Positions 18,247-36,726 of a stretch of 64,000 bases of DNA are shown piece by piece. The stretch comes from a virus. Taxonomy: Duplodnaviria > Heunggongvirae > Uroviricota > Caudoviricetes. Below the pieces are notes generated by a model. It ran no database searches. It had not been told where the DNA came from and worked only from the letters and a program-made list of their open reading frames with translations. The translations under genes were made by a program, and so were the position numbers. Location: IMG/VR virus record IMGVR_UViG_2721755711_000002; one strand, written 5' to 3'. Every line of letters begins with the position of its first letter. The stretch's first letter is position 1.

Positions 18247-18379
18247 TGAACAGATCGCTGAATAACATCGATGGAGATCACTTTTGACTCATTTTGTTAT
18301 TCAGTGATCTCCATCAATGTTATTGGAACTTCACAGGTGTGTTGATCTGTATCTTTTGCCATTCCGGTAAAGGATACCT

Positions 18380-19921
18380 ATGCCAACAGTTCCAATTTCT
18401 ATGAGAAAACTTAAAGAAATTCTTAGGCTTAAATACGGTGTTGGACTCAGCCATCGACAAATTGGTCGTAGTCTTGCAATCTCCCCTTCCGTTGTATCCA
18501 GATATGCTAATCGGGCGGCTCAACTTGGCATAAAGCAGTGGCCCTTACCTACAGGATGGGATGATACAAAACTAAAACATGCGTTCCTTCAGACCCAGGT
18601 TAAGATGAAGAAGCACTCTCTGCCTGACTGGGCTACAGTACACCGGGAACTGCGTAATAAATGCGTGACGCTGCAGCTACTCTGGGAAGAATACTGTGAG
18701 CGTAATCCAGGCGGTTTTTACAGCTATAACCATTACTGCCGGATGTACCGTGAATGGCTCAAAACCACTTCACCATCAATGCGTCAGGTACATAAAGCTG
18801 GCGAAAAACTTTTCGTTGATTACTGTGGACCTACCGTTGGCGTTACCGACCCTGAGACCGGAGAAATAAGAACTGCTCAGGTCATCGTAGCTGTTCTCGG
18901 GGCATCAAGTTACACATGGGCAGAGGCCACCTGGTCTCAGCAGCTTGAAGACTGGGTGATGAGTCATGTTCGCTGCTTCCAGTGGTTGGGTGGCGTTCCT
19001 GAACTTGTTGTTCCGGACAATCTGAAAAGCGCCACATCCAGGGCATGTAAGTATGATCCTGACGTTAACCCTACCTACCAGCAGATGCTTGAGCATTATA
19101 ATGTCGCAGTTTTGCCTGCGCGGCCACGTAAACCGAAAGATAAAGCCAAAGCTGAAGTTGGCGTTCAGGTTGTTGAACGCTGGATCATGGCCCGAATCAG
19201 GCATGAGATCTTCTACAGCCTTGCATCGCTTAATCAGCGCATTCGGGAGTTGCTGGAAAGACTGAATAACAAAATAATGCAGAAGTTGGGTTATTCACGT
19301 GCAGAACTCTTCATCCAGCTTGATAAACCCGCACTGAAGCCTCTTCCTGAAGCCAGTTACAGTTACACCCTGGTGAAGAAAGTCAGAGTTCATGCCGATT
19401 ACCACGTGGAAATCGACAAACATTACTACTCGGTTCCATGTTCGCTGTTAGGCCAGCAACTGGAAGCATGGATCTCCGGAGAACTGGTAAGACTCTTCAA
19501 TCAGGGGCAGGAGGTTGCTGTGCACCCGCGCAAGCGTACTTATGGCTACAGTACCCGCAACGAGCACATGCCTGAAGCTCATCGACAGCATGCCACCTGG
19601 ACGCCAGAGCGTCTTCTGGAATGGGCGGGGCACATAGGCAGTGAAACTCATAGTTATGTGCTTCATATACTGAACTCTCGTCCACATCCGGAACAAAGCT
19701 ATCGCTTCTGCCTTGGACTCCTGAACCTTCATAAAAAATACAGTAAAGCCAGACTTAATGCAGCATGTGCAAGAGCTCTGAAAACAAAGGTATGGCGTCT
19801 GTCAGGTATTAAATCGATCCTGGAAAAAGGTCTGGATAAACAACCTGTTCAGGATCCAAAACCAGATCTGTTATCCACGATGGAACACGAAAACGTACGC
19901 GGCAGTGAGTATTACCACTGA
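18380..19921 (+). CDS. istA: IS21-family transposase IstA
   Basis: 513-aa ORF with N-terminal HTH and DDE integrase-like core. Confidence 0.85.
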   Translation: MPTVPISMRKLKEILRLKYGVGLSHRQIGRSLAISPSVVSRYANRAAQLGIKQWPLPTGWDDTKLKHAFLQTQVKMKKHSLPDWATVHRELRNKCVTLQLLWEEYCERNPGGFYSYNHYCRMYREWLKTTSPSMRQVHKAGEKLFVDYCGPTVGVTDPETGEIRTAQVIVAVLGASSYTWAEATWSQQLEDWVMSHVRCFQWLGGVPELVVPDNLKSATSRACKYDPDVNPTYQQMLEHYNVAVLPARPRKPKDKAKAEVGVQVVERWIMARIRHEIFYSLASLNQRIRELLERLNNKIMQKLGYSRAELFIQLDKPALKPLPEASYSYTLVKKVRVHADYHVEIDKHYYSVPCSLLGQQLEAWISGELVRLFNQGQEVAVHPRKRTYGYSTRNEHMPEAHRQHATWTPERLLEWAGHIGSETHSYVLHILNSRPHPEQSYRFCLGLLNLHKKYSKARLNAACARALKTKVWRLSGIKSILEKGLDKQPVQDPKPDLLSTMEHENVRGSEYYH

Positions 19922-19932
19922 TACGGGATCCA

Positions 19933-20682
19933 ATGATGAATCATCTTTACGAACAACTGACCGCACTTAAACTCACCGGCTTCCGTGATGCGCTTAAAAA
20001 GCAACTTGCTCAGCCGGGCACATACCAGGAGCTGGGCTTCGAAGAACGCCTGTCATTACTGACAGCAGAAGAACTAACCTGCCGTGAAAACAGGAAGGCA
20101 GAGCGTCTGATCAAACATGCACGGTTCAGACTTAATGCTGAGTTATCAAAGCTGGATTATCGTAACAATAGAGGGCTGGACAGGGCCCTCATCCGTTCAC
20201 TCAGTCAGGGAAACTGGTTAACCCTGAAACAAAATATTTTACTGACCGGGGCCACCGGCAGCGGTAAAACGTTCCTGGCATGTGCACTTGGTCATAATGC
20301 CTGCCGACAGGGATACAAGGTCTACTATTATCGCCTTAAAGCGCTGATGGAACAGTGCTATCAGGGGCATGCTGATGGAAGATACAGCAAACTTTTGACC
20401 AGGCTGAATAATAGCGATCTGCTGCTTCTGGATGACTGGGGGCTGGAACCTCTCTCATCAGAACAGCGTAGCGACCTGCTGGAAATAGTGGATCTGATGT
20501 ACCAACGAGGCTCAATCATCGTAGTGAGCCAGTTGCCGGTGGAAAACTGGTACAAAATGATCGGAGACTCCACACATGCGGATGCCATCCTAGATCGACT
20601 GGTTCATGGCAGTATCAAGATCGAACTTAAAGGAGAATCAATGCGGAAAATACAATCTCCGTTGACCGAAGGAGATCAGTGA
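19933..20682 (+). CDS. istB: IS21-family helper ATPase IstB
   Basis: 249-aa ORF with Walker A LTGATGSGKT and Walker B LLLLDDWG. Confidence 0.9.
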   Translation: MMNHLYEQLTALKLTGFRDALKKQLAQPGTYQELGFEERLSLLTAEELTCRENRKAERLIKHARFRLNAELSKLDYRNNRGLDRALIRSLSQGNWLTLKQNILLTGATGSGKTFLACALGHNACRQGYKVYYYRLKALMEQCYQGHADGRYSKLLTRLNNSDLLLLDDWGLEPLSSEQRSDLLEIVDLMYQRGSIIVVSQLPVENWYKMIGDSTHADAILDRLVHGSIKIELKGESMRKIQSPLTEGDQ

Positions 20683-20836
20683 AGGTAATTTAAAAACGGT
20701 TCTGTGAAAGTGACACGAACCGATCTCCATCGATGTTACTCACCGATCTCCTTCACGGTAATACGCACATAATAAAAAAATCCAGAATAAAGCGCAAAAT
20801 AAGGTGATACAGCACTTTATTTGACCACTTACGTTT

Positions 20837-21403
20837 TTATTCACTGATGGGCAGACTTCTGATGGTGTTCAGGTCATCCAGCCCCGCCAGTGTTTCCTTC
20901 ATCTCCCGCTGACGGCGATAAATCTCGTCATTGCGATCGACCTGCGCCTGAACCATTGCAGTAAGCAGTTCATCCAGTTGTTGCATTGACAACTTTACCT
21001 GCTGATTTTCCGCATCACCCCATACCATAGTTTTCCGTGCCGTGACTGATTTTGCTGACATCACCACCGGATAAAGGCGGGCCATTGAATCCGGTCCCCC
21101 GTTCCAGCTATGACCGTTCCATTCAAAAATGAATGGCTGCGCCTCCTGCTCTGTACGCCATGCTTCAATTTCCCGGCGTTTGGCTGCTTTTGCTGCTTCC
21201 AGCATCTCTGACGTGACGGTGAACGGCGTTATTTCTCCCCACTTGCCGCTTTGCAGTTCCTGCCAGACTCGCTGCCCTGTCTCTGCTGTATCCGTGGCAG
21301 TTGCCGTATACGGAACCGGTTCATCCATGCCATCAAACAACACCCCACAGTCAATCGCGCCATTTTCAAGATAACGCGCATTTTCGATGCGTTTTATTTC
21401 CAT
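20837..21403 (-). CDS. Tail fibre assembly protein (Tfa-like chaperone)
   Basis: ~189-aa ORF from MEIKRIENARYLENG, directly after side tail fibre gene. Confidence 0.65.
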   Translation of the reverse strand: MEIKRIENARYLENGAIDCGVLFDGMDEPVPYTATATDTAETGQRVWQELQSGKWGEITPFTVTSEMLEAAKAAKRREIEAWRTEQEAQPFIFEWNGHSWNGGPDSMARLYPVVMSAKSVTARKTMVWGDAENQQVKLSMQQLDELLTAMVQAQVDRNDEIYRRQREMKETLAGLDDLNTIRSLPISE

Positions 21404-21410
21404 AAAACAC

Positions 21411-22835
21411 CTACGCAATACGTATGAACAAACCAATCATGACACTGGCTGACCCGGCAGACCCGAGCCCGTCACCTGACAGTGCCCGATATGACCCCGG
21501 CATACCACCACCAGAACCCCGCACATATACGGAAACGCTGCCGTTATATCCAACCCCGCTACCGGTCGTGCCGTGACACATAAATTCAACCGCGCTCAGG
21601 CGTGACCCCGGATAGCTGTAACCGCGTTTTATCCGGCGGTCGGTGTCTGCGTCTCCCTTACCGTTATAAGCCGCCAGTACAAGACTGCCTGCACCGTACC
21701 AGCCGTCCGTGGTACCGGGAGCAATACCGGACAGAAGAGAGATAATGTCCTGTGAGGTCATCTTCAGATTTTCCCAGCCAGTCAGATAACCATTACCTGT
21801 TGTCCAGTAGCGGTTGTAATAAACATCGCCATTAATACCGTAGAAAATAATGGCCTTTGCTGTATATCGCGGCTCCGGTGGATTATTGCGTGCCTCAACC
21901 CACCGGATGCGGACCATCCCGTTAAACAACACACCTCCGGATATGATTTTACTGTCACCCTCAACAAAATATTCACCCGGCGTCGCATTCCTTACCCAGG
22001 ACAGAAAATCATCCTCTGTGTTAAAACGGATACGCTCTGCGGGCAAAAAAATATGCCCAAAACCAAATGCGCCAGGTGTCGCCAGACGACCTTCAGTCCG
22101 GTCACGAATGTCGCTCTGTGGCGTCATTGTGGCTGCGCTTTTCAGTCCAAGATTATCACGGGATTCCTGCTGAGCCTCTTCACCTTCATCAGCCAGCTCT
22201 GATAAACGATTCGCCGTTTTCAGTGTCGCAGATAACGCAGTATCAATATCTGCTCTGGCCTGCTCTGCACCGGATGCGGCCTTTTTCGCGGCTTCAGCAT
22301 CCTGCCTGACCTCCGCGGCGGTATCCTCAACCCGTGAGGCCAGAGTTTCGACCTGTTGTTTACCCTCCGCAACCGCGTCGGCGTTCTGCTGTACGTCTTT
22401 CGCCAGCGCCTGACAGTCGGCCTTAATCTGCTGTGCATCAGTGGCGTGTTGTCCTGCCTGTTGTTCGCTGCCAGCGGCGGCTTCTGCGCTCTGCTGCGCC
22501 TGTGCCACCATTTCCTCAAAGCGTTTTACCACGTCGGGTTTGAGGTCGCCTTCATCGGGGGCGGTCAGAAAGTCGTTCAGCGTGCCGGGCTTTGAATCGT
22601 CATAAACAGCAATATTCCCCACGCAACATTTCGGGCCGTTCTTTTGTTTTATATGAACGGCATATTTTCCTGTCTGCGCTTCAAAGGCATACTGTCCCGC
22701 CGCATCGGTTTCAATAACCGCAAATGATTCAATAACCACTTCACTGGTATTAACCAGTGCATCTAAATAAATTTTGCATTCCGCCATCGGAACGCCAGTG
22801 CCATTAACAAGTGCACCTGAAATTAATACAGACAT
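21411..22835 (-). CDS. Side tail fibre protein (lambda Stf-like N-terminal domain)
   Basis: 474-aa ORF; N-terminus aligns with lambda Stf (ISG.L.DGTG...YEDSQPGTLNDFL). Confidence 0.8.
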   Translation of the reverse strand: MSVLISGALVNGTGVPMAECKIYLDALVNTSEVVIESFAVIETDAAGQYAFEAQTGKYAVHIKQKNGPKCCVGNIAVYDDSKPGTLNDFLTAPDEGDLKPDVVKRFEEMVAQAQQSAEAAAGSEQQAGQHATDAQQIKADCQALAKDVQQNADAVAEGKQQVETLASRVEDTAAEVRQDAEAAKKAASGAEQARADIDTALSATLKTANRLSELADEGEEAQQESRDNLGLKSAATMTPQSDIRDRTEGRLATPGAFGFGHIFLPAERIRFNTEDDFLSWVRNATPGEYFVEGDSKIISGGVLFNGMVRIRWVEARNNPPEPRYTAKAIIFYGINGDVYYNRYWTTGNGYLTGWENLKMTSQDIISLLSGIAPGTTDGWYGAGSLVLAAYNGKGDADTDRRIKRGYSYPGSRLSAVEFMCHGTTGSGVGYNGSVSVYVRGSGGGMPGSYRALSGDGLGSAGSASVMIGLFIRIA

Positions 22836-22882
22836 AAAGCCTCTGAACTGAAAACGGTCGCCAGACAGCGACCGTTATTGTT

Positions 22883-23407
22883 TTACACGTCAGGTTTTTC
22901 CGGCCACTGAATTAAATAAAAGGAAGATTCATCACTGACCTGACTTAAATCCAGCGCCTTTACCGCTTTGATATATTCCATCCACTTCGTAAGACGGGCC
23001 TTGTCGTCATCACTGATGGTGCCCAGCTCCAGCTCGGTTTTCCAGTCTGAGGTGATGTCCTTTGCTTCATTCAGCAGGCGCTGGCGTTGTTTTTCTGCCA
23101 GTTGCGAATAATCAACAGGAACCGGCAGCACTTCGCCATCTTTGTAATACCAGCAGGCTTCAATGCCAAAACCTTCCGGCAGTTCATCAACTTCCACAAT
23201 GGTGAAGCCAGCCGGATAAAGACGGGACACGTCTTCCGCCATCGAATAAATCACGCCGGTTTCCGGGTGAATACACAATTTGTATTTCTTCGTGAATTTA
23301 TCCAGTGATTCATAAAAATCCTGTCCGTCTTCACTGCGGAAATACTGAATATTTTCACCATAAGGCATATCTTCCGGGTAATAACGCGTGACGTTTCTGA
23401 GTTCCAT
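22883..23407 (-). CDS. Tail fibre assembly protein
   Basis: ~175-aa ORF from MELRNVTRYYPEDMPYG after a tail fibre gene. Confidence 0.65.
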   Translation of the reverse strand: MELRNVTRYYPEDMPYGENIQYFRSEDGQDFYESLDKFTKKYKLCIHPETGVIYSMAEDVSRLYPAGFTIVEVDELPEGFGIEACWYYKDGEVLPVPVDYSQLAEKQRQRLLNEAKDITSDWKTELELGTISDDDKARLTKWMEYIKAVKALDLSQVSDESSFYLIQWPEKPDV

Positions 23408-23421
23408 TATTTTATCCTTAA

Positions 23422-24225
23422 TTAGCCGGCTACAGTGCGCCATGCACCATTGATATAAATCTGCGCGGATTTGTAATACACACCGCCGATGTTATCCGCC
23501 GAACTTCTTCCCGTGTCCTGGACATAAATTCCTGACAACTGACAGCCGGAAGGTGCGCGGAACGTCCAGGTGATTTCGTTACCGCCGGGGTTGTAAAACA
23601 CCTCATTGGTGTACTGAAAATTACGCACAGCGCCGGAATCGGTGGTGTTGATGGTGATATCGCTGCTGCCATCAAACAGCACATTGTTAATCCTGCGGGC
23701 CGTCTGAAGGCGGGTTGCCGTTCCGGCGTTGCCGCCGATGTTGTTGATGGTGATATCCGACGTCAGGGGCATATTGTTAATTTTGCGCGTTTTCGGCGCA
23801 CCGCCGATGTTATCCAGAAACAATTGTTTATTCGGGATGTCTGCGCCGTTACGGTCTTTTGCCAGTCTGGCGTTTGCGTTATCCATCGCAATCTTGACCG
23901 CTTTTGGCGTAGCTGCTTCTGTTTCTGATTCACTGTTAACAGCACTGTTAAGCTGCACCACGCCTTTTTGCGTCAGTGATGCATCCGGGACTTTCTGTCC
24001 AATAAACGAGGTCAGCGCCTCAACCAGCTGGTTTTGTTTTTCCGGGGCAGGGGTGACGCCAGCCTCCTTAAGGACGTTAATCACCTCCTGCTGCAAATCA
24101 CGCGTTGCTGCCTGATGATTATTCATAAATTCAGCAGTAACGATGGTTCCCTCAATTCCCTGAGTCGGGTCACCATCATGAAATAACTTATCCGGCGTAT
24201 TCACCGGGGGCATTAAATTCTGCAT
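23422..24225 (-). CDS. Tail fibre protein (Mu S-like)
   Basis: 267-aa ORF with fibre motifs (AATPKAVKIAMDNANARL, repeated ITINN segments). Confidence 0.65.
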   Translation of the reverse strand: MQNLMPPVNTPDKLFHDGDPTQGIEGTIVTAEFMNNHQAATRDLQQEVINVLKEAGVTPAPEKQNQLVEALTSFIGQKVPDASLTQKGVVQLNSAVNSESETEAATPKAVKIAMDNANARLAKDRNGADIPNKQLFLDNIGGAPKTRKINNMPLTSDITINNIGGNAGTATRLQTARRINNVLFDGSSDITINTTDSGAVRNFQYTNEVFYNPGGNEITWTFRAPSGCQLSGIYVQDTGRSSADNIGGVYYKSAQIYINGAWRTVAG

Positions 24226-24797
24226 TATTCCTCCACCTCATACGTGAAATAACAGTCTGTAAAAGCCGGTTTAAGGTCTTTAAACGTGTTTTCTAAAATG
24301 GATTCACCAAAGGCCGTCAGCGGTTCGCCGGTTGCCGATGCGCCCGTTCTGAACCGGTAGACAGGTGTTTTTGTCCCGATAACATTGACCTGCCACGCCC
24401 AGCGGATTTCTGGTATCAGCAGACGGTCGCCGCAGCGGTTTATCCCCACCCGGAACGGTCGCGGCTCCGTAATGGTGATGGTATAGCCCAGACTGGCGGC
24501 AAGGCTTTTGAAGTAAGGGATTGACAGTCCCCCCGTGGCAGCCATTTTTACCAGAATGTTCTGACGCCGCTCCTGTTGTGTTGCCCCTTCACGGGGAATA
24601 ACACCGTACACGCGCTCCCAGTCGGACAGCGTCATCGATGCCTGCAACGGGGTGATTTGTGCCAGAACGCGCGCCGCTGACGCCTTCACGGCTTCCATGA
24701 CGTCAGCCTCGGCTGTCAGTTCTGCGGAAATATATTTCCCGTTCAGGTCATAACTGACAGGTGGCAGCATGGCGCGAAATAAATCGACCATATTCAT
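24225..24797 (-). CDS. Baseplate/tail protein (Mu gp48 / YmfQ-like)
   Basis: ~190-aa ORF between baseplate J and tail fibre genes. Confidence 0.55.
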   Translation of the reverse strand: MNMVDLFRAMLPPVSYDLNGKYISAELTAEADVMEAVKASAARVLAQITPLQASMTLSDWERVYGVIPREGATQQERRQNILVKMAATGGLSIPYFKSLAASLGYTITITEPRPFRVGINRCGDRLLIPEIRWAWQVNVIGTKTPVYRFRTGASATGEPLTAFGESILENTFKDLKPAFTDCYFTYEVEE

Positions 24798-24801
24798 AAA
24801 A

Positions 24802-25881
24802 TCACCCCTCACGTGGAAAAGACTGAATATCAATATTTCCCGGGCGCAGCCATTCCCACGTTGACGCGTTAATAATGGCTTTTACGTTGTCTGCTGGCGT
24901 AATGATTCGCCGGTCACTGACACCGGAAATTAATGAAATCTGGGTTTCCAGTTGTGAAATTATTAATTCCTGCCCCGGCTCCAGCCGGTTCATAAAATCC
25001 GTGATAACGTCAGTTATCTGCGGTTTTATCTGCTCAACGGTCAGACCGCTGGTTTTTACCCGGACAACGAAATCAACGGCTTTTTTCGTCGGGGACAGTA
25101 CCATAGTGTCCTTTGCTGTGACCGGGCGGACTTCCTCAATATGTGCCAGCACGGCATTAATCAGTTCCTGCGAAGGGAGGTCATTGGCTGACGTAATGGC
25201 CACATCAACCGTCCCCAGTCCACGACGCAACGGCTCCACATACGCAGACGTAACGCCATCCACTTCCAGCGCCCAGCGTTTGTAATCATATTTATTACCG
25301 CCAGCGGGCGGCCTGCGCAGAATATCCAGATAACGCGCCAGCAGGTCGGCGTCGCTTTCCCTGTCCGTTCCGCCGGTCAGGGATTTAATCGTCACCGTGC
25401 TGTTGATGCCTTCCGGCGGACTGACCAGCGTTGCCGTCTGCGTTGTGGATGCGTTCGTCTGTGCGCCCGTGGTGGTGCTTTTTACCGTCACCTCCGCGCT
25501 GCCTTCATCACCGATGGTGCAGTCTGCGGTGGTGGCCACGCTGACACCTTCACCACGAATTTCCGCACCGGCTGGCAGCGTCTTACCGGGTGTGCCGGTA
25601 ATCACTGCCGGACCGGATGAGGCCGTTGCTTTTTTACGAAAAACATTGCGCGTGCGGCAGTGCAGCTCCAGATATTCAGGGTCTGCCGTGTCAGGAAACA
25701 CCTGTCGGAGAATCCATCCCTGATGCATATACAACCCGTCAGCCACGCCGGATACGGCATTTGCACGAATGCGGTAATCGCTGTCTGCGCCGGTATCTAT
25801 GGTTTCTCCCGGCAGGGCGTTAGCGATATCACGTAGCTGGCGTTCTGTGTTTTCAGCAACGCCCGGAACAGGAAACGGCAT
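24802..25881 (-). CDS. Baseplate J-like protein (Mu gp47-like)
   Basis: 359-aa ORF, conserved position and size. Confidence 0.75.
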   Translation of the reverse strand: MPFPVPGVAENTERQLRDIANALPGETIDTGADSDYRIRANAVSGVADGLYMHQGWILRQVFPDTADPEYLELHCRTRNVFRKKATASSGPAVITGTPGKTLPAGAEIRGEGVSVATTADCTIGDEGSAEVTVKSTTTGAQTNASTTQTATLVSPPEGINSTVTIKSLTGGTDRESDADLLARYLDILRRPPAGGNKYDYKRWALEVDGVTSAYVEPLRRGLGTVDVAITSANDLPSQELINAVLAHIEEVRPVTAKDTMVLSPTKKAVDFVVRVKTSGLTVEQIKPQITDVITDFMNRLEPGQELIISQLETQISLISGVSDRRIITPADNVKAIINASTWEWLRPGNIDIQSFPREG

Positions 25882-26231
25882 TACATAATCCTCACAGGGT
25901 GTTCAAACGTCTGCGGTGTGCCCGCGTTATCCGTGACGGTGATTAACAGCAACAGCCAGCCGCGCTGGCCCGGTTTTGTGTCAACGGTAATGGCTTTTGC
26001 CCGCCCGTCATCGAGCAGGGGCTGAAGTGCCTGGCTGGCATACTGCGCTGCCAGTCTGTGAACACGGGAAACGTCTTTTTCCCGCTTCAGTTCGTGCAGG
26101 CGTGACCCCAGCGACGCATCCGCCCAGTAACTGCCAAGCGGTGTCGCCAGTCGCAGATAAACCGCGTTATGGAGTGTATAAATCCGGCGGCGTTCGTAGT
26201 CGCCGGTTGCAGGTGAAATCGTCTGGTCCAT
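25881..26231 (-). CDS. Baseplate wedge protein (gp25/GPW-like, Mu gp46-like)
   Basis: 116-aa ORF; translationally coupled. Confidence 0.55.
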   Translation of the reverse strand: MDQTISPATGDYERRRIYTLHNAVYLRLATPLGSYWADASLGSRLHELKREKDVSRVHRLAAQYASQALQPLLDDGRAKAITVDTKPGQRGWLLLLITVTDNAGTPQTFEHPVRIM

Positions 26232-26284
26232 GCCGCCAGTCTGGCAGCATGGACAGGTCAGAATCAGGTGAGGGTGTTCAGCAC

Positions 26285-26938
26285 TTAATTAACCGGCGTG
26301 TCAGACATGCCGTGTGGGGTTGGATGTTTGTGCGTTCCGATTTTAACGCCATTAATGGTGACGTCAACGGAGGTAATCACACCGCCCACATGGTTGATGT
26401 TGCCTTCAAAGGTGGCGGCGTATTTCTTACCTCCGCTGATGGCCATGCCACCGTTGCCGGTGATTTTGCCTTCCACCGTCAGCCTGTCGCTGGCTGTCAG
26501 TAACGGTGTCGTGAATGCGGCGTTCTCCTCTGCCTCAACCTCATAGCGTTTGCATTTCACCCGGTAAACGTCACATTCGTTTTCAACAATCCGCCCGCGC
26601 TTCAGTACGATTTTCGCGCCTTCGTCGGTATACAGGGCCACTTCCCCGGGTTTCAGTTCCGTCAGGCGATATGCGCCGTGCTCGGTGGCTACGACGACGG
26701 TATGGGAGGTATTACCGTTCAGCGGAACGGCAATACCCATCGAGCCGGGCGGTGGGGATGTGGTGAGGCCGTAATGCTGAAAATACTCCGCACCGTCCAG
26801 CTGTTCGCCTGCCAACCCGTTCAGCTGGAGAAGCTGTACTTTGGTTGAACTATCCGTCGTGCCGGTGATCACCCTGAACGCCTGGCGAACGGTCGCCAGT
26901 GCCTGCTGTATGCGCTGATTAACCTTGTCCCACATCAT
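26285..26938 (-). CDS. Baseplate spike / assembly protein V-like (Mu gp45-like)
   Basis: 217-aa ORF in baseplate module. Confidence 0.6.
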   Translation of the reverse strand: MMWDKVNQRIQQALATVRQAFRVITGTTDSSTKVQLLQLNGLAGEQLDGAEYFQHYGLTTSPPPGSMGIAVPLNGNTSHTVVVATEHGAYRLTELKPGEVALYTDEGAKIVLKRGRIVENECDVYRVKCKRYEVEAEENAAFTTPLLTASDRLTVEGKITGNGGMAISGGKKYAATFEGNINHVGGVITSVDVTINGVKIGTHKHPTPHGMSDTPVN

Positions 26939-28146
26939 TTCTCCCAGACCTTAACAATGGTGACCTCTTTTTTCTTTTTGCCCCTGCGGTGATGGCGTTT
27001 CTTCTCACGCGGGAAGGCGTCAGGTATCCACACGCCGTCCTCCTTAAAGCGAAGCCGGGTTGTCTGCCCGTTCCGGCCTCCGCTGAACTCACGCCCCATC
27101 AGGAAAAAGATGGCATCAATGCCGTGGAGTTCGCTGACAATCCGCACCCGCTGGCCGGGCTGCCACAGAACACCATCTGCCGTGCGATGACCTGCAACCA
27201 GTGCGACGATATCCAGCCCCGACAGGCGGGCATCACTCATCATTTTTTTTGCGCGCCAGTTCACCTGCTCCATGTTACTGGTGTCGCCCTGGGTGATTAT
27301 CTGCGGGCGGTAATAATCCACGGTAGGGTCGGTGGCCACGGCTTTCATGTTATGAATGCCTGTCTGACCACTGCCTGTATTACCGCTGTCCTGCCCGGAT
27401 AATGTGCGCACGCTGCCGTCCTCGTTCCAGATATCCAGCGGCACCACGGCCACCTGTTTCTTGCTGTCTGCGCGGCGGGCGTGGCTCTGGGCCAGCACCG
27501 TCAGCTCGGAGAAACAGCCGTTAATGGACCGGGTATCGTCCAGCTCCATCACGTTGTTCCCGGTGCCGTCCAGCTTCATAATCAGTGTATCCACCGGCGT
27601 GGTGGTGTAGTCAGGGCCACCCACAACCAGCGTACCGTCAGGCTCAAACCACGGCCATAAGCCGCGACCGGCGGCAGCTTTAGCCAGTGCATCCCACGCA
27701 CGCATCCCCGGTTCTATAACGACCTTGTCATTACGTGACACACCGGACGCCTGAATACGGATGCGCTGTATCCCCAGCGGTCTGACAATCCTGTCGATGA
27801 CCTCGTCCAGCGTCAGCTGATTGGCGCTGAACACCGGCGCGGCACAGTCCACCAGAATGGCGGCATCATCACGCCCGGACAGGGTCAGCGTGCAGCTCTG
27901 ACGGGATACACTGCGGCGCACGCTGTCCACGCGCCCACTGAGCACCGTCTCGTCTCCCACCTGCAAACGGACCGGCGCACCCCGGACGATATCCGCCGGG
28001 AACACCTTTTCAGGCAGTCCCAGCTGAAGCTGCCAGCCGTCAGCGGCTTTCAGGAAATCGCTGTCAATACGATAACTGCTCCAGTCAGAATGCGACCTTC
28101 CGGCAATGACCAGGCTGATTTTGTCGTCGTTATTTTGCGTAGGCAT
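26935..28146 (-). CDS. Baseplate hub protein (Mu P / gp44-like)
   Basis: 403-aa ORF between DNA circulation protein and spike. Confidence 0.6.
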   Translation of the reverse strand: MPTQNNDDKISLVIAGRSHSDWSSYRIDSDFLKAADGWQLQLGLPEKVFPADIVRGAPVRLQVGDETVLSGRVDSVRRSVSRQSCTLTLSGRDDAAILVDCAAPVFSANQLTLDEVIDRIVRPLGIQRIRIQASGVSRNDKVVIEPGMRAWDALAKAAAGRGLWPWFEPDGTLVVGGPDYTTTPVDTLIMKLDGTGNNVMELDDTRSINGCFSELTVLAQSHARRADSKKQVAVVPLDIWNEDGSVRTLSGQDSGNTGSGQTGIHNMKAVATDPTVDYYRPQIITQGDTSNMEQVNWRAKKMMSDARLSGLDIVALVAGHRTADGVLWQPGQRVRIVSELHGIDAIFFLMGREFSGGRNGQTTRLRFKEDGVWIPDAFPREKKRHHRRGKKKKEVTIVKVWEK

Positions 28147-29479
28147 TAATCACCATCCCGGCGGTTATGTTGTTCGGGTCACGCAGCTGCGGGTTCAGAC
28201 GTTGCAGCTCTGCCGCACGGCTGTAATCACCGTACCACTGCCACGCCAGCAACAGCAGACAGCTGTCCGCCTGCACCTGTTTCTGCGTCAGCGGTGGGCG
28301 GCGTGACAGAACCAGCAGGCCGACATCCTGCACGGATGCCGCCACGTTCTTCATGCTCTGAATGATTTCCGGGTACATCAGCCCCAGCGGTGATGCGGTT
28401 TCGGTTATCCGTTCGCGTTCGCCTTCATAGCGTTCACGGAACAGCGTGATGGCGGCCTGTAAGCGGGTGCGCACATCCCCGACCAGTCGCCCGATATCCG
28501 CCGGTATAAGCTGCTCTGACTGGGCTTCATCGGACAGTATCGCCGTCGCCACGCTGGCCAGCTCTGAGGCTGCCAGAACCGCATAAGCCGCTTTCACGTC
28601 CTGCACGTCTTCCACGGACGCATCCGGCGGAAGTGCCACAGACGGCGTTTTATCGCCGCTGACCAGTGCGACCGGCAGCGCGACCAGCTCATCCATATCT
28701 GCCATCACCTCATTCCAGCAGGTCATCACTGTCGCAGAACTGGCGACGCTGTCTTCCCCGGTCAGTCCGGTCGTGGTGGCGGAATCAGTACGCTCCAGCA
28801 CCGGCACCGCGTGCCCGACATCTGACGTGTGGATTTCCAGCACCTCTGCCAGCCCGCCGATGAACTTTCCGGGTTCGCTGGCCAGTGACATCATATTGTC
28901 GATGGATGAGAGAAAATCGCTTTTGAACGTCAGCAGGGTATTCACCAGCGTGGCACGCACCGTCTGGATTTTTTTTATCACGCTGTTAATGGTCTTTAAA
29001 GGGGCCGTAACAGCGTCAAATAATTCGCTTAACTGTGCCAGTAACTTATCCAGTTCTTCAAATAACTGCTGTGCAAACAGCTCCGGTAACGGGGTGCTGA
29101 ACAACGCGCTGCCGGTGCGGTTCTCCAGAAAGCTCATGTCGATGGTGCAGCTGTCCGGGCTTTCTGCGTCATGGCGAATGCTGTAGCCGGTCACAATCAC
29201 CGACGGTACGGAGCCGTAAACCGGGTGAATCAGCTCACCATCGCCGCCTTCGTCCAGGGCGGCGATCAGCTTTTCAAGTTTATATTCGTAATACTCCCCC
29301 CACAGGAACGCCGTCATGCGGAACGGTCGCGCCTTGCGTCCGAGGTCGTGCAAATCCGCCCCGTCAACAAACGGGTATTCATAGACCGCATGGTCGCGGC
29401 TGATTTGTTCGTCCGTGTTCAGTACATCAAACTGCACGCCACGAAAGGAGGCGTTTTGCAGGTTTTCAGCCCAGCCCAT
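28130..29479 (-). CDS. DNA circulation protein (Mu N / gp43-like)
   Basis: 449-aa ORF directly after tape measure. Confidence 0.65.
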   Translation of the reverse strand: MGWAENLQNASFRGVQFDVLNTDEQISRDHAVYEYPFVDGADLHDLGRKARPFRMTAFLWGEYYEYKLEKLIAALDEGGDGELIHPVYGSVPSVIVTGYSIRHDAESPDSCTIDMSFLENRTGSALFSTPLPELFAQQLFEELDKLLAQLSELFDAVTAPLKTINSVIKKIQTVRATLVNTLLTFKSDFLSSIDNMMSLASEPGKFIGGLAEVLEIHTSDVGHAVPVLERTDSATTTGLTGEDSVASSATVMTCWNEVMADMDELVALPVALVSGDKTPSVALPPDASVEDVQDVKAAYAVLAASELASVATAILSDEAQSEQLIPADIGRLVGDVRTRLQAAITLFRERYEGERERITETASPLGLMYPEIIQSMKNVAASVQDVGLLVLSRRPPLTQKQVQADSCLLLLAWQWYGDYSRAAELQRLNPQLRDPNNITAGMVINAYAK

Positions 29480-31761
29480 CAGTAAGTTCCTCCCGTGCCT
29501 CTGTTGCCGTCCTGAAGGTTGTATTTGTTCACTGCCTCCGCCACGACCTGACCATCGAGCACCAGTTGTGTGGTGAAATTAATGGGGCTGGCAGGTGGTC
29601 CCCAGTGCGTGAGGTATTCCGGCTGGGTGATGCGTCCGGGTTGCTTTGATGCTGTTTCAGACGCTGCCATTCCGGCTTGCTGTCGGACTTGTTCTGGTGT
29701 TGGCAGAGAATCACCGGCGATAACCCCGGTTTTTTTCAGTTCGTCAAGATACTGCTGGATCCATTTCTCGTTTTCTGTTGAGTAACCTTCGCCAAACTGC
29801 CACCACGGCTGATATTTTTCACGGGCAGCATCAATCAGCCACTGAGGATATTTAGCCCGTATATTTTTCCAGCGCTCCTCGCTTCCTTCGACGGCGGCGT
29901 CTTCTTCCGGGCTGGTTGCAGTGGCCAGTGCCGTAACGGTGCCACCGAAAGAAAGCAGGCTACCGGCAATGCCGGGGAATTTAAATCCTTTGCCTTTTTT
30001 GACCGTGTTTTCAATTACATCACCGACAACCTCGCCAGCCTTGCCACCGGGTTTACCCCCGGTCAGGATTTTGATCCCGGCCCATGTCAGAGCCGCTGCG
30101 GTCATCGCTTCAATGGCTGTCGTGGCACCCACCACTGCTGTGGTCAGCCCCGGAAATTTTTCACCCGCCCAGCTTATGGCATCGGCCACAGTACCGGACG
30201 CATCAGCCAGCTTTTTCATGCTGTCCATTTGTGAAAATTCAAGCGTGTTTTTAGCCTGTTCGGTTTTAAAATCATTCGTGCCTGACATGAATTTAAAATC
30301 CAGATCTCCGGCGCGCTGACCTTCTGGCAGGGTGCGTTGCTGACTGATTTCAGCTTCGACCTGCTTTCGGTATTCCGGGTTATTCCTGTAAGCCAGGATT
30401 GCCTTCAGTGCCTGCATATCACCGACAAGCTCACCAACACCGAACCCCTCAAGAATTTTCGCCATAGACTCCAGAATTTTGTCCTGCTGGCCTTTGTCTT
30501 TTGTTGCTGCCAGGCGCTTCTGAAGCTCCTGATATTGTTTGTTGTTCGCGGCGACTTTATCAGCAAGGCGTGAAAATGCCTCTATCGGATCAATGCCGTT
30601 TTCCATAGCTCGGGTCAATGTACCGGGTAAATCAATACCCTTTCCATCAATCGTGATGCTTTTCGCCCTTGTTGCTGATTCACTACTGAAAAGTTTGGCC
30701 AACAGGTTTACAACGTTATTACCTGCCTCACTGCTGCTGCCTGCGGCAATACCTGCGACCTCATTAAATGCCAGTAATTTCTGGAATCCATCCAGTCCTT
30801 TCATTCCGGCGTTACCAGCTAACGCCATCTGAGGTCCAAGATGCTCCGCCATATCCCGTAGCTCAAAATTACCGGCTTTACCGGCTGCAATAGCCATATT
30901 AAACATGGCCGGAAGATCGTTGTCTGTCAGTCCAAATGTTTGCTTAGCTTTGGCCGCCATAGTGACCAGATCGCGTGGGGATGCACCGGATGCAGTAGCA
31001 AATTTCATAATCTGCGGTAAGAGATTATTCGCGGTATCCCAGGAAAAAGCGCCGCTGGCCAACATCTCATTCATTGCTTCAGCTGCATCCTCTTTCGTTC
31101 CGCCACCATACGTTACCGCCGCGCGGATACTGTTTTTCAGCTTTTCACGCCCAAACTGCCTGCCTTCCAGACCACCATCACTGAACGCCGTGTTCGCCAT
31201 CATGCTGAGCTGACGTTCATAACTCATTTGATTTCTGACTGGTTGCGTCATAATGGCGGCCCCTGCCATAATTCCGCCGCCTATTGTCACGGCATTCCCG
31301 CCAAATGCAGCCGCACGGGCAAAACGCCCCCGTTCAGGGATAACAGGCGTTTTCGCCATCTTCATCTGAGCCTGAGTGACGCCATCCAGTTCACGCTTGA
31401 GTGCCCGGGCTTTTTCCCGGGTGGCCTGCATGGCGCGCTCCTGCTCCTGCGCAGATTCAAAACCGGCGCGGGCCAGACGGTTATAGCTGGCAACCGTCTG
31501 ATAAATTTCACGCCGGATTTCACGTTCTGCACGAATACCGAGCGTTTCCCGGGCACGGGCGGCACGCTGTATCTCTTTTGCCGCCTTTTTCGTGCTGTTA
31601 ATGCTTTCCTGCTCGGTACGCTTCTGCTCTGCGCCTGCCTTCCGTGTCGCCTTTGTTACACCTTCGGTGGCTTTGATAACCTGTTTTTGTCCCTTTTCCA
31701 GAACCTGCGAGGCTTCGTCCTTCGCAGTCAGGGTCATGCCAACTTTGAAATTACCGGCCAT
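29479..31761 (-). CDS. Tail tape measure protein
   Basis: 760-aa ORF, Ala/Gly-rich with central hydrophobic segments. Confidence 0.85.
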   Translation of the reverse strand: MAGNFKVGMTLTAKDEASQVLEKGQKQVIKATEGVTKATRKAGAEQKRTEQESINSTKKAAKEIQRAARARETLGIRAEREIRREIYQTVASYNRLARAGFESAQEQERAMQATREKARALKRELDGVTQAQMKMAKTPVIPERGRFARAAAFGGNAVTIGGGIMAGAAIMTQPVRNQMSYERQLSMMANTAFSDGGLEGRQFGREKLKNSIRAAVTYGGGTKEDAAEAMNEMLASGAFSWDTANNLLPQIMKFATASGASPRDLVTMAAKAKQTFGLTDNDLPAMFNMAIAAGKAGNFELRDMAEHLGPQMALAGNAGMKGLDGFQKLLAFNEVAGIAAGSSSEAGNNVVNLLAKLFSSESATRAKSITIDGKGIDLPGTLTRAMENGIDPIEAFSRLADKVAANNKQYQELQKRLAATKDKGQQDKILESMAKILEGFGVGELVGDMQALKAILAYRNNPEYRKQVEAEISQQRTLPEGQRAGDLDFKFMSGTNDFKTEQAKNTLEFSQMDSMKKLADASGTVADAISWAGEKFPGLTTAVVGATTAIEAMTAAALTWAGIKILTGGKPGGKAGEVVGDVIENTVKKGKGFKFPGIAGSLLSFGGTVTALATATSPEEDAAVEGSEERWKNIRAKYPQWLIDAAREKYQPWWQFGEGYSTENEKWIQQYLDELKKTGVIAGDSLPTPEQVRQQAGMAASETASKQPGRITQPEYLTHWGPPASPINFTTQLVLDGQVVAEAVNKYNLQDGNRGTGGTY

Positions 31762-31923
31762 TTTTCTGCTTACCTTTTCTGCGTTTCTTTCTGAGGGATT
31801 TAAATGACTGGCGGGTGGTCTGTGAGGTGTCCTTCCTTCCTGAGCCGCCGCCGTTCAGCCTGTCAACGGCGGCAAGCCAGCCGTCCAGCTCGGGACGGCT
31901 CATGGTCATGATTTGCTCTTCGG

Positions 31924-32307
31924 TTATTCCGTAGCGCCCGAGGATGAGGACTGCGAGCCGGAGTCCGGCGAGCCGGGATTCCCGCCGTTCCGCTTTACCT
32001 TCAGGACGTTGCGTGATGCCAGCAGAATATTAAAATCATCCGGCGTCATGTTGTCGTGTAACAGCTCCGCCGTCAGTTCTTCCTGCGGAATATCCCCCAG
32101 ACGGACCAGCGTTGCCGCCATCACCGCACAGCGGTAGTAATAATCCGCCGCGAAGCCATCCACCGTCTGAAAGCGTTCTTCAGTTTCTTCCAGTGCCTGC
32201 CCGTTATCACGCATGACCGGCAGACGCAGCTCAAAGTTTTTATGAACGGTGCCGTTAAACACCACGCCATCAGACAGCTCGCCGGTCTGTGTATTAATCA
32301 AAGTCAT
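31924..32307 (-). CDS. Tail assembly chaperone-like protein (Mu gp41 position)
   Basis: 127-aa ORF between tube and tape measure. Confidence 0.45.
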   Translation of the reverse strand: MTLINTQTGELSDGVVFNGTVHKNFELRLPVMRDNGQALEETEERFQTVDGFAADYYYRCAVMAATLVRLGDIPQEELTAELLHDNMTPDDFNILLASRNVLKVKRNGGNPGSPDSGSQSSSSGATE

Positions 32308-32678
32308 CCTGTCACCTTCCTGAGTGCAGCCATTTTGATATCAATTTTCGCTTCATTATCGACGGTGTATTTCTCACCCACTTCGGTTGTGAAGCAGTCC
32401 AGATAGGAGGTGCGCTTGCCGCTGTTGCTGAGCGGATAAATTGAGATTTTCACACCTTCCAGATTTTCCCAGTCCGGCTCGTTGGTATCAGGGATAACCG
32501 CCGAAACTGAAATATCGTAGGTGGCAATGCCACGGGCAAAGCCTTTGGCCCTGCCGGTTTTGTTCATGGTCTTGACCAGCTTTCGTCCGGTGTTGATCTG
32601 AACATCAAAGTCGGTGATCTCGATTTCCTGGCTGTCCACCTCCAGCACAATCGAGCCGACATATTCTTTAATGGACAT
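32304..32678 (-). CDS. Tail tube protein (Mu M-like)
   Basis: 124-aa ORF following sheath gene. Confidence 0.7.
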   Translation of the reverse strand: MSIKEYVGSIVLEVDSQEIEITDFDVQINTGRKLVKTMNKTGRAKGFARGIATYDISVSAVIPDTNEPDWENLEGVKISIYPLSNSGKRTSYLDCFTTEVGEKYTVDNEAKIDIKMAALRKVTG

Positions 32679-32690
32679 TTACCGCGCTCC

Positions 32691-34112
32691 TTACAAAATC
32701 ATGTCGATGCGACCGGCAAACACATGCAGGCCGTTAACCACATCCGCCGGAACCACGCAGTCGAGACGGTTTGCATCTTTCCCGTTTCGCTGAACGCGCA
32801 GCTTTGCCTTGTTCGCTTCCACGTTCTCCAGAATTTCCGCTTCCTCCAGCTTGATCAGCACGTCATACAGTTCGCTTTCCACTTTTGCGATAGTGCGGGT
32901 GCTGAGTTTTTCGCGCGGGAAGCGAAGGCTGATGCGTTCGCGGCACGCCTTGCGGGTGTAATCCAGCGTTCTGATGGACGTGATATCCAGTAACGAGACG
33001 TCAGTCACGCCCTGTGCGTTAACCGTGTACGTACTGACCGCACGCACAATCTGCACCGTGTTACCCGGGCCAACCTCAACCGGCGTCAGGCCGTTATGCA
33101 GGGCGTTTTCCTGCTCGTTACGGCTTTCACGCTGTGACATTGCGACCACATCCAGCCCGGACAGCGCCAGCGAGTTCAGCGGACGCGCCGGGTCTTCCTC
33201 GCCCGCCATCACAGCGCCGTAGATGGCAGCCAGCACCGCTGGCAGCTTCACGGAGCCGCGATACCAGGGGACAGACACGCGCCCACTGTTCACACCGGCG
33301 GCCAGGGTGATCCCGTTTCCGAGACTGCCCGTCCAGCCTGCACAGCCAATCGCGCCGCGCTGTTCCATCGCGTTCCCGGTTTTCTCCAGATGCTGCTTCA
33401 GGGCGGCAAGGGCTGGCGTGGTACTGAACGGACAAATCAGAATGTTGTGACCGGCGGCAAAGACCGCATCCAGTGCGGGCTGAATATCCGGGTCCATTTC
33501 GCCGTTCGCCATCGGCGTGGCGCTCACGGTCAGACCGCCTGCCGTGGTGGATGCTGACAGGGTGATATCATTCCCCCAGGCACCTTTGGTCCGGGTGGTG
33601 ACCGTCAGCTGAGAGGTTTCTGATTTGTATTCCCCCGTCACCAGAAGCGAGGGCGTCTGCGTCATTGCTTCCACCAGTGCCGGAATGATTTTCGACGGTC
33701 CATCACCGGTTTCCACATCCACCGAAACCTGCTCACCGGCAACCCATACCGACAGTGTGCCGCTGCTGATTGCCGTACCGCTGACAGTAACCGCACCGGT
33801 TGCTGCCTTTCCTGCGCCACTGTCTGCAATACCGATAACATCCAGTTGCAGATAGCTGTTGGCATTAATGGCCGCGCGCGCCATTGCAGCGGCCAGCGAA
33901 CCGGCCCCGAAATACAAATCCGCTTCGTCTTCGGAATACACAGAAACGGCATTCAGGGGCCTGGCGGTGCCGCCTGACAGCATCGGGCCAATCACCAGAA
34001 CACGCTGTTCGTTACCCGGCAGCGTGTTAACGGCGAGCCGGGTATTGAACTCAAAATGCACACCGGGCTTACGGATGCCGCCCGAAATGGTGTCAAACTG
34101 AATTTCACTCAT
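32691..34112 (-). CDS. Contractile tail sheath protein (Mu L-like)
   Basis: 473-aa ORF. Confidence 0.85.
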   Translation of the reverse strand: MSEIQFDTISGGIRKPGVHFEFNTRLAVNTLPGNEQRVLVIGPMLSGGTARPLNAVSVYSEDEADLYFGAGSLAAAMARAAINANSYLQLDVIGIADSGAGKAATGAVTVSGTAISSGTLSVWVAGEQVSVDVETGDGPSKIIPALVEAMTQTPSLLVTGEYKSETSQLTVTTRTKGAWGNDITLSASTTAGGLTVSATPMANGEMDPDIQPALDAVFAAGHNILICPFSTTPALAALKQHLEKTGNAMEQRGAIGCAGWTGSLGNGITLAAGVNSGRVSVPWYRGSVKLPAVLAAIYGAVMAGEEDPARPLNSLALSGLDVVAMSQRESRNEQENALHNGLTPVEVGPGNTVQIVRAVSTYTVNAQGVTDVSLLDITSIRTLDYTRKACRERISLRFPREKLSTRTIAKVESELYDVLIKLEEAEILENVEANKAKLRVQRNGKDANRLDCVVPADVVNGLHVFAGRIDMIL

Positions 34113-34347
34113 CGGAATCCACCTGTTTCTCTCTCTTCGCCTTCGCTTTTACCTGCACGGCGTCCTGTTCAGCCGTCACGATAGTTTCAGGCTCATCCTT
34201 CACCAGAATCAGGTCACCGTCCTGAACGGCTCGCCGGTAATAAACGGTGTTCTCAACGGTCACAACTTCCGTGGTGATGTATTTCCGGGCGTTATCCTCC
34301 ATCGGGAACTTCATCCCGGGAGCCGCCTTAACCTTCATTTTGTTCAT
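34105..34347 (-). CDS. Small conserved Mu-like protein (gp38 position)
   Basis: 80-aa ORF upstream of sheath. Confidence 0.45.
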   Translation of the reverse strand: MNKMKVKAAPGMKFPMEDNARKYITTEVVTVENTVYYRRAVQDGDLILVKDEPETIVTAEQDAVQVKAKAKREKQVDSDE

Positions 34348-34988
34348 GCTGTTGCTCTCTTAATTCAGTCAGCCCTGATATTTCAGCGTCGCTGTCCTGC
34401 ATCTGGTACCGGATGCCAAGGTTCAGCAGCTCCGGGTCAAGGTCTGACAGCCTGCCGTGGTAGCGGTTGAAGAGGCGGTCCGCTTCTGCGCCACGCTCCG
34501 GCCATTTGCCGTTCTCCAGCGCGTGCTCCACCCAGCGGGTATCGAACTCACAGGCAAACACGGACATTGCCCGCTCTGCCACGCCGGTGTTAAACAGCGT
34601 CCTGACCCGCCCGGGTTCGAAATAATCAATCTCCAGCCCCAAATCCTGACCGGTCAGCAGGCGACGGACGGATTCAACCAGCTGGTTTGTCCCGACCTCA
34701 TCCCGGACGGTGCCTCCCTGTCTGGCGCTCTGTTCGCTGCGGGTGTTGTAATCACCCACCACAACCACAAAGCGTCCGGTGGCAATGTATTTCCGGCGTG
34801 ACGTGGAATAGCGTTCGGTTTTCACGATGCCGCCGAACGTCACCCAGGCTGCCGGAAGGCTGCGAACAATCCGGCCCGGATCTTCATCCAGTTCACCGGC
34901 ATAGGTGCGGACATCCTGCACCATATGCCCCAGACCACAGCGCAGACGCTCAACCAGCGCCCGTTCAATTTCAGTAATCAGAATGCAC
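34328..34988 (-). CDS. Mu gp37-like protein; 5' end disrupted by IS629
   Basis: ORF continues from inside the IS629 inverted repeat; phage-derived part starts at 34988. Confidence 0.5.
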
Positions 34989-35030
34989 TGAACCGCCCCG
35001 GGTTTCCTGGAGAGTGTTTTATCTGTGAAC

Positions 35031-35922
35031 TCAGGCTGCCAGATCATCGTTTCCGATGGAAGCATAATAAGCTTTTTCTGCTTCTGCCGGTGGGATATGG
35101 CCCAGCCTTTCCAGCAATCGTCGATTGTTATACCAGTCCACCCACGTGAGTGTGGACAGCTCCACTTCTGTCCGGTTTTTCCAGCGCTTACGGTGTATTA
35201 CCTCCGCTTTGTAAAGGCCATTGATGCTTCTCCGCCATCGCGTTGTCATACGAGTCACCAGTACTCCCTGTTGATGCCAGTAAGCCGGCTTCCTTAAGCC
35301 GCTGCGTGTAGGCCAGCGATACATACTGAGAACCTTTATCACTGTGGTGGATTGTGCCGGACGGCCGACGGGCCCACAACGCCTGCTCCAGTGCATCCAG
35401 CACGAATGCCGTTTCCATGGATGATGAGACCCGCCATCCCACGATGTATCCGGCGAACACATCAATGATGAACGCCACATAAACGAAGCCCTGCCATGTG
35501 TTTACCCAGGTAAAATCAGCCACCCACAACTGGTCAGGACGTTCTGCCACGAACTGACGGTTTACGCGGTCGCATGCGGCAACGGCTTTCCGGCTGACGG
35601 TAGTGCGGACCTTTTTACCCCGGAGAACACCGGCAAGTCCCATAACCGCCATGAGACGTGCCACAGTGCATCTGGCCACTCTGATACCTTCCCGTAACAA
35701 CTGACGCCAGACTTTACGCACACCGTATACCTGGTGATTTTCATCGTATACGCGCTGTATCTCTTTCTTCAGCCAGTCATCGCGCTGCGCACGGGCACTG
35801 CGTTTATCAGGATGATGTCGCTGTTGCTGACAGTGGTAATACGTTGACGGGGCAATATGCAGTTCGCTGCATACCGGTCCGACCCCGTACTGCTCACGCA
35901 GCTTATCCAGCAGTGGCATCAT
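35031..35922 (-). pseudogene. IS629 transposase orfB interrupted by a 1-nt insertion frameshift
   Basis: ORF pieces 35188-35922 and 35031-35480 are in different frames; extra base in GAGAAGC (plus-strand ~35227-35231) breaks the expected DNAMAESINGLYKAEV. Confidence 0.7.
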
Positions 35923-36245
35923 TTTTTCCAGAGGCGGTCGAACTCCGCCTTCGCAAAATAAGCGGAAGCCTGGCGAAGGATATCGTTACTGCGGCGCAGT
36001 TCACGATTTTCACGTTCCAGCTCTTTCAGACGCTGACGTTCAGCGGTGGTGAGCCCACCATCACCGCCCCCGGTATCCCGCTCATGCTGGCGAACCCAGA
36101 CACGCAGAGTCTCCGGCGTACAGCCAATTTTTGGGGCAATGGAACAAATTGCCGCCCACTGTGAATCATACTCATCCTGACTTTCCAGAACCATACGAAT
36201 CGCTCGCTGACGGACTTCGGGGGAAAAACGAGTATTTTTAGTCAT
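35919..36245 (-). CDS. IS629 transposase OrfA (HTH)
   Basis: 108-aa [24 protein letters not shown]... with leucine-zipper-like C-terminus. Confidence 0.85.
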
Positions 36246-36270
36246 CCTGTTTACCTCTTTCTCAGGGAGT

Positions 36271-36723: not shown

Positions 36724-36726
36724 GGG

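Follow-up and report, generated by a model that had tools for sequence, protein, structure and literature searches.

The 64,000-nucleotide (nt) stretch of viral DNA in IMG/VR record IMGVR_UViG_2721755711_000002 (hereafter the window) was analyzed around an insertion sequence (IS) of the IS21 family, ISEc12, which lies between the truncated holin gene of a lambdoid prophage and the tail-fibre end of a Mu-like transposable prophage. Comparison with relatives fixed both junction positions and the identities of the three elements, found the right end of the IS and the left end of the Mu-like prophage intact, and gave the size and content of the missing DNA. The locus would be best accounted for by a Mu-like insertion into the lambdoid prophage, followed by an ISEc12 insertion and then by one illegitimate deletion of about 1.4 kb, a history to which a probability of roughly 0.75 was assigned.

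An ISEc12 copy without its left tip

An IS21-family element had been recognized at this junction from the letters alone, and this was borne out by the presence, in the order characteristic of the family, of an intact istA (DDE transposase) followed by an intact istB (AAA+ helper). The IS was 100% identical to ISEc12 copies in more than 1300 complete Escherichia coli genomes. When segment 18247-20755 was compared by megablast with 5426 complete E. coli genomes, 4796 places were found in 1730 of them, with a median of 3 and a maximum of 17 ISEc12 places per carrying genome. The best match was at least 99% identical in more than 2000 E. coli records, and the listed copies were annotated by PGAP as 'IS21-like element ISEc12'. 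On these identities the IS can be taken as a known and very common element, chance resemblance being excluded.

The ends of ISEc12 were defined from six 100%-identical copies in unrelated contexts (a plasmid near traQ, nrfB, mnmH, an IS66 fragment, a recombinase gene and a P2-like prophage). All six shared 60 bp more to the left of 18247 and 12 bp more to the right of 20755, and diverged only beyond. The full-length element is 2581 bp in these copies, starting TGCGTATTTTCATGAAAGG… (over a longer stretch, TGCGTATTTTCATGAAAGGAGATC…) and ending …CCTTCACGGTAATACGCA. Positions 18247 and 20755, put forward as the IS ends in the original prediction, are thus internal, and the true span is 18219-20767 (Table 1). 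The imperfect terminal inverted repeats on which those ends had been based are inner members of the subterminal repeat arrays typical of IS21, and the presumed flanks AACATTT and CGGTAAT are both IS sequence. The right terminus of the window copy is complete at 20767 (…CGGTAATACGCA). Its left end lacks nt 1-32, that is, the TG and the outer repeat of the left terminal inverted repeat, and the missing 32-mer did not occur anywhere in the window, even at 3 mismatches. Having only one of the two terminal inverted repeats (5'-TG…CA-3', with multiple subterminal repeats), the window copy is a truncated copy and not a complete IS.

Target duplications of 5 bp have been reported for ISEc12 (PMC10711316) and for IS21 (PMC10122671). 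Clean 5-bp duplications (CCTGC, GCGTT and ACTCC) flanked three of the six reference copies, a fourth had a duplication of 5-6 bp, and the remaining two, both in rearranged contexts, had none. At the true boundaries of the window copy, neither a 5-bp duplication (flanks …CGACGC versus CATAA…) nor any other direct repeat of 4-8 bp was present; the earlier claim that the target duplication is missing therefore holds, although the argument for it had rested on boundaries inside the IS. The left flank …CGACGC is not the original insertion flank of the IS. The 7-nt sequence GGTAATA, found at 18235-18241 and 20757-20763, was ruled out as a target duplication, both occurrences being inside the IS.

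On its left side the IS truncates the holin-like gene, as had been noted. The open reading frame (ORF) 17956-18249 consists of about 88 N-terminal holin codons, cut after …STSLDA, followed by 9 codons of IS DNA and a stop at 18249. The holin fragment is 94.7-97% identical in nt sequence to the intact 390-nt 'putative holin' genes of three lambdoid relatives (L007, L010 and L011), in which a holin of 129 amino acids is followed by a second holin and a GH108 endolysin, and homology to these genes ends at window 18218-18222. Around the breakpoint, the sequence is GACGCGCTTTGTG in the relatives, AATAACTTCCATC in ISEc12 and GACGCACTTCCATC in the window; the holin/IS junction itself reads CTCTCGACGCACTTCCATCG. 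No clear microhomology was found at this junction, at most an imperfect (A/G)CTT beside it. The IS begins here with AC, not TG, and 9 nt precede the next GAGATC repeat, compared with 18 nt between the real terminus and the first repeat. Judged by these features the breakpoint does not resemble cleavage at a surrogate end, which argues against transposase cleavage, and the use by IstA of an internal pseudo-end was ruled out because both the dinucleotide and the distance to the following repeat are wrong. The holin/IS junction was absent from the 5426 complete E. coli genomes, from GTDB representatives and from IMG/VR. A strong terminator-like hairpin (GGGCCGACAGAGGCCC followed by a T-run) was observed just upstream of the holin start, at 17915-17940; it fits a terminator of the late operon that is subject to Q antitermination, and istAB now follow it in the same orientation.

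A Mu-like prophage inside a lambdoid prophage

On its right side, the IS adjoins position 54 of the Mu-like right end. No complete E. coli genome matched the 133 bp beside the IS; the 25-nt core of this segment matched a single IMG/VR contig (L012, 97.9% identical over 829 bp) and was absent from GTDB representatives and metagenome contigs. Comparison with L012, which runs outward …CATAAT ← TGTAACTTCGCGATTTTTTCTGGACTATTTAGCGCTTTATTTTGAACGGTTGA with unrelated DNA beyond, showed that exactly 53 bp of the Mu-like terminus (TGTAACTTCGCG…GGTTGA) are missing, comprising the cleavage terminus and the first two transposase-site-like repeats. Only the third, inverted repeat is retained (core ATCCAGAAT at 20780-20788), and the gap between the IS and the stop codon of the tail-fibre assembly gene is 69 bp (20768-20836), shorter than the ca. 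80 bp given before. Counting the end in L012 and eleven others, twelve right ends from viral contigs were compared; they adjoin at least nine different outside sequences, and every one begins TGTAACTTCGCG(A/T)TTTTTTCTGG and carries two direct TTCTGG-type repeats and then a third, inverted one. Such a terminus is absent from the DNA that separates the IS from the tail-fibre assembly gene (with no intact Mu-like end in 20756-20836) and from the rest of the window, and the prophage is thus end-truncated. By this comparison CATAATAAAA may be read as internal to the Mu-like right end, not as its native start. The Mu-like/IS junction was absent from the 5426 complete E. coli genomes and from IMG/VR.

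The Mu-like right end had been proposed to be deleted because no terminus, invertase or mom-like gene was seen. The terminus is indeed absent from the window, but the loss amounts to only 53 bp and the intact relatives have no invertase or mom either. In all of them the right end lies about 120-240 bp past the last fibre gene, with neither gene there; the relatives ending right after the tail-fibre genes are a prophage in scpC, the eutC prophage of enteropathogenic E. coli (EPEC) E2348/69 and the twelve viral-contig right ends. Since intact relatives end at this place, the absence of invertase and mom is ancestral to the lineage and not a loss; no Mu-like genes were lost, and a lost invertase/mom module was ruled out.

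At the other end of the Mu-like prophage, MuA-like and MuB-like genes stand beside a divergent repressor gene, an arrangement that identifies a transposable prophage. Genes for head, sheath, tape-measure and baseplate (Baseplate_J, Mu Gp48) proteins are also encoded, and invertase and mom are absent from the window, so that the prophage is not Mu sensu stricto. Matches to relatives in unrelated contexts (eutC, an RHS gene, a methyltransferase gene and scpC) all stop at window 58496-58500, which defines a left terminus common to many independent insertions. Two of these relatives are L009, the intact prophage that strain TUM1881 carries in scpC, and L013, the eutC prophage of E2348/69.

Beyond the Mu-like left terminus lambdoid DNA resumes. 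This flank is 93.7% identical to L010 overall and 99.8% over 58497-59300, matching lambdoid prophages of several E. coli strains. Of the Mu-like target, which is empty in L010 (…AAAATCAC/GGTAACAG…; the slash marks the junction here and below), one copy survives as the GGTA(A) at 58497, and the other would lie in the deleted segment. A 9-nt identity, TCACGGTAA, was noticed between the ISEc12 right tip (window 20753-20761) and the lambdoid DNA flanking the Mu-like insertion site (L010 5997-6005); it was judged coincidental because it is present in every ISEc12 copy. The left part of the window belongs to the same lambdoid prophage, with an integrase, an exoVIII/RecE-like gene, DicB, DUF968, RusA and the Q antiterminator (15403-16098), and lambdoid terminase and later genes follow after 59 kb. 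The Mu-like prophage is thus nested inside a Rac/lambda-like prophage with its fibre end toward the holin. This nesting, which the original prediction had missed, explains why the holin lies opposite a tail-fibre module.

The holin break corresponds to L010 4664 and the resumption of lambdoid DNA to L010 6001, leaving 1336 bp missing. In the relatives this segment holds the holin C-terminus, the second holin and the GH108 endolysin; of the holin-holin-endolysin set downstream of Q, only holin codons 1 to about 88 are left in the window.

Table 1. Features of the ISEc12 junctions and of the two nested prophages in the window
Feature	Coordinates	Strand	Basis
Truncated lambdoid holin, first ~87-88 of 129 codons (Phage_holin_8)	17956..18218	+	Pfam match, profile positions 1-81 of 121
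Truncated ISEc12 (IS21 family)	18219..20767	+	2549/2549 identities to positions 33-2581 of the full-length 2581-bp copy
istA transposase, 513 amino acids, intact	18380..19921	+	rve + Mu-transpos_C_2 (Pfam); length as WP_001298859.1 of the reference copies
istB helper AAA+ ATPase, intact	19933..20682	+	IstB_IS21, 227 bits; PGAP start corresponds to 19936
Mu-like transposable prophage	20768..58496	-	Pfam; collinear at 89-97% with intact prophage L009
Mu-like right-end remnant, from position 54 inward	20768..20836	-	Alignment to the intact end in L012: TGTAACTTCGCGATTTTTTCTGGACTATTTAGCGCTTTATTTTGAACGGTTGA/CATAATAAAAAAAATCCAGAAT…
Last gene of Mu-like prophage, DUF4376 tail-fibre assembly-type protein	20837..21436	-	Pfam DUF4376; 97.9% nt identity to L012
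Tail-fibre protein (phage_tail_N domain), in the second of two tandem fibre/chaperone pairs	21411..22835	-	Pfam
IS3-family element in Mu-like prophage, 1311 bp	34989..36299		Ends TGAACCGCCCCGGG…/…CCCGGGACGGTTCA; orfB with HTH_21 + rve
Lysis cassette of the Mu-like prophage, Phage_holin_8 / holin_3_7 / GH108	46341-47608	-	Pfam
MuB-like ATPase	54171-55064	-	AAA_22/TniB-like
MuA-like transposase	55083-57125	-	HTH_Tnp_Mu_1 + rve + Mu-transpos_C
CI-type repressor of Mu-like prophage	57511-58191	+	Pfam
Intact Mu-like left end, terminus …CCCCACA at 58496, inward TGTGGGGTAGTGATCAATTCTGG	58341..58496	-	Three same-orientation TCCAGA(A/T)T repeats
Resumed lambdoid prophage: small ORF that follows the lysis cassette, first 23 nt missing	58497..60885	+	Collinear with L010 from locus position 6001

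Order of events and alternative routes

According to the favored history, a Mu-like phage would first have integrated into the lambdoid prophage, in a small ORF about 400 bp downstream of the holin-holin-endolysin cassette, so that the right junction between lambdoid and Mu-like DNA would have read …ATCACGGTA(A)/TGTAACTTCGCG…. ISEc12 would then have entered the Mu-like right end after nucleotide 53, between the second and third transposase-site repeats, with istAB pointing away from the holin and with CATAA as presumed target duplication, of which the right copy alone would survive; the left junction of the untruncated IS would have read …GGTTGACATAA/TGCGTATTTTC…. In the last step, a single illegitimate deletion of about 1.4 kb would have fused holin codon ~88 with nucleotide 33 of ISEc12. 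It would have removed the remainder of the holin, the second holin, the GH108 endolysin and the 53-bp Mu-like terminus, together with the left copy of the IS target duplication and the 32-bp left tip of the IS itself.

We infer the order of these events, as well as the view that the second and third steps were only two events, from the following. The ISEc12 insertion must precede the deletion because the deletion took part of the IS. Since the part taken was the IS's own left 32 bp, the deletion would be an illegitimate one that incidentally spanned the IS end and not a transposase-mediated adjacent deletion. The suggestion that the locus reflects an IS-associated deletion or rearrangement and not a simple insertion was upheld as regards the deletion, but not as regards a role for the transposase in making it. 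The Mu-like genome is about 36.4 kb when the two ISs, together 3.9 kb, are left out; under headful packaging of the Mu type, their addition would push the right end beyond the headful. An IS-laden phage could not deliver a complete genome, and Mu packaging biology would therefore place the IS insertions after lysogeny. A local inversion that moved the missing tips was ruled out, neither the IS tip nor the Mu-like tip being found in the window. From the database comparisons, the junction event appears to be strain- or lineage-specific.

Several points weigh against this history. With the left CATAA copy deleted, a simple ISEc12 insertion at this place cannot be proven. The particular right-end variant is carried by one close relative only (L012), the lambdoid ancestor is mosaic (holin 94.7-97% versus downstream flank 99.8% identical to relatives), and the figure of 1336 bp presumes equal gene content in that ancestor. 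The lack of clear microhomology leaves the deletion mechanism unspecified, and the repeated nature of the IS makes a mis-join across ISEc12 conceivable, though unlikely.

The events could also have begun with ISEc12 in the lambdoid lysis region, from where its right end would have transposed intramolecularly into the right end of the Mu-like prophage, with deletion of the intervening DNA; a separate, later deletion would have taken the left tip of the IS and some of the holin. This route was considered unlikely. It agrees with the perfectly intact IS right end, which adjoins Mu-like DNA with no verifiable duplication, and with the ability of IS21-type transposases to pair ends non-canonically, giving products with two left or two right ends (PMC10122671). 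However, it requires three events instead of two, the missing 32 bp still need a transposase-independent deletion, and nothing in the sequence demands it.

Still less probable is homologous recombination between two direct ISEc12 copies, a left-truncated one in the holin and a complete one in the Mu-like right end, which would have left a hybrid IS with loss of the intervening DNA. Recombination between IS copies is a common route to deletions, and ISEc12 is multicopy, at the numbers per carrying genome given above. The scheme nevertheless needs two insertions within 1.4 kb plus a prior truncation plus the recombination itself, and no internal polymorphism marks a hybrid, the IS being 100% identical to the common allele and hence uninformative either way. 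An assembly artefact, with repeat-collapsed ISEc12 joining two non-contiguous junctions, was given very little weight. In its favor, many E. coli genomes contain the IS as a perfect repeat of 2.5 kb, and neither junction recurs in the complete E. coli genomes or IMG/VR. Against it, both flanks belong to a single coherent nested structure and are correctly oriented, the lambdoid DNA beyond the Mu-like left end is that of the same prophage at a point 1.34 kb past the holin break, and the holin/IS junction, as a truncated end, is unique and differs from a generic IS boundary.

The lysis cassette of the Mu-like prophage is about 71% identical in nt sequence to the deleted lambdoid cassette and inverted relative to it. 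Recombination between the two cassettes was ruled out, since the holin fragment matches the lambdoid relatives, at 95-97% identity, and not the Mu-like copy.

Consequences, known relatives and accessory genes

IstA requires two complete repeats and a terminal CA (PMC10122671). The truncated ISEc12 has neither left cleavage site nor outer repeat and so would be unable to transpose as a unit. The Mu-like prophage, its right terminus gone, would be unable to transpose or replicate, and the lambdoid prophage would be left stripped of its lysis genes, with its late operon split by 40 kb. One small deletion would thereby have disabled three mobile elements together, and because the junctions are strain-specific the locus offers a tidy, datable case of prophage grounding. 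It is ordinary prophage decay, all parts being of known kinds with no new mechanism or type of element, and its main value is for annotation, in the correct boundaries of the truncated ISEc12 and in the nesting that accounts for a holin next to tail fibres. As a speculation with only slim chances of being right, the deletion, by fusing the lambdoid late transcription unit (Q and the truncated holin) to istAB in the same orientation, could allow prophage induction to drive Q-antiterminated read-through into istA and istB, with a burst of ISEc12 transposase acting in trans on other ISEc12 copies. If true, this would tie movement of the IS to the SOS response or to prophage induction.

One known ISEc12 copy disrupts the tssM gene of E. 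coli ST131 clade C (PMC10711316). The window copy is the same as ISEc12 over 2549 bp, including intact istA and istB and an identical right terminus; unlike normal copies, which are 2581 bp long with 5-bp duplications, it lacks the first 32 bp and any duplication.

The Mu-like prophage shares gene order with the EPEC E2348/69 eutC prophage and its relatives (e.g. the TUM1881 scpC prophage), at 88-97% nt identity across the transposase, lysis, head, tail and baseplate modules. The left terminus TGTGGGGTAGTG… is common to them, and none has gin or mom beyond the tail fibres. By contrast, the window prophage lacks the 53-bp right terminus, carries two ISs, and has a different distal fibre pair (phage_tail_N + DUF4376) with no inverted fibre segment. 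Two tandem tail-fibre/chaperone pairs, all on one strand, lie at 20837-24225; the distal pair resembles side fibres of phiP27/Rac-type phages and occupies the place where Mu-like relatives have an inverted fibre/chaperone pair. No inverted repeats of at least 16 nt (gix-like) flank the fibre genes of the window. Given termini TGTGGGG…/…GTTACA, the flanking duplications in L009 and L013 are 4 bp (TATC and CACT), a reading from two cases only, for which the empty eutC site was checked.

Like phage Mu, the window prophage has a MuA/MuB-type module beside a left-end repressor, TG…CA termini, transposase-site-like repeats at both ends and a gp47/gp48-type baseplate. It differs from Mu in its weak nt similarity (72% over about 165 nt of a tail-fibre gene), in having no G-segment invertase or com/mom, and in that two of its relatives read as having 4-bp duplications where Mu has 5 bp. 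Mu-like phages nested in lambdoid prophages are already known from public records: LC727881 and LC727895, annotated as Mu-like phages in Shiga toxin (Stx)-converting lambdoid prophages, show the same nesting. Here an IS insertion and a deletion have additionally locked the nested phage in place, the surrounding prophage is of the Rac/lambda-like kind, and no stx was seen in the window.

The genes of the Mu-like prophage look intact except for the insertion of the IS3-family element, which lies near the 3' end of a gp436-family gene, is absent from L009 and is flanked by a clean 3-bp duplication, CAC. Unlike ISEc12, this element is a simple insertion. Between its DUF1804 gene and its terminase, the Mu-like prophage carries an N6/N4 DNA methyltransferase gene (44648-45388, minus strand) that the E2348/69 relative also has and the TUM1881 relative lacks. 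In the lambdoid prophage, a PemK/MazF-like toxin ORF (16213-16692) and an AraC-family regulator gene (16858-17778) were observed between Q and the holin and resemble moron-like cargo.

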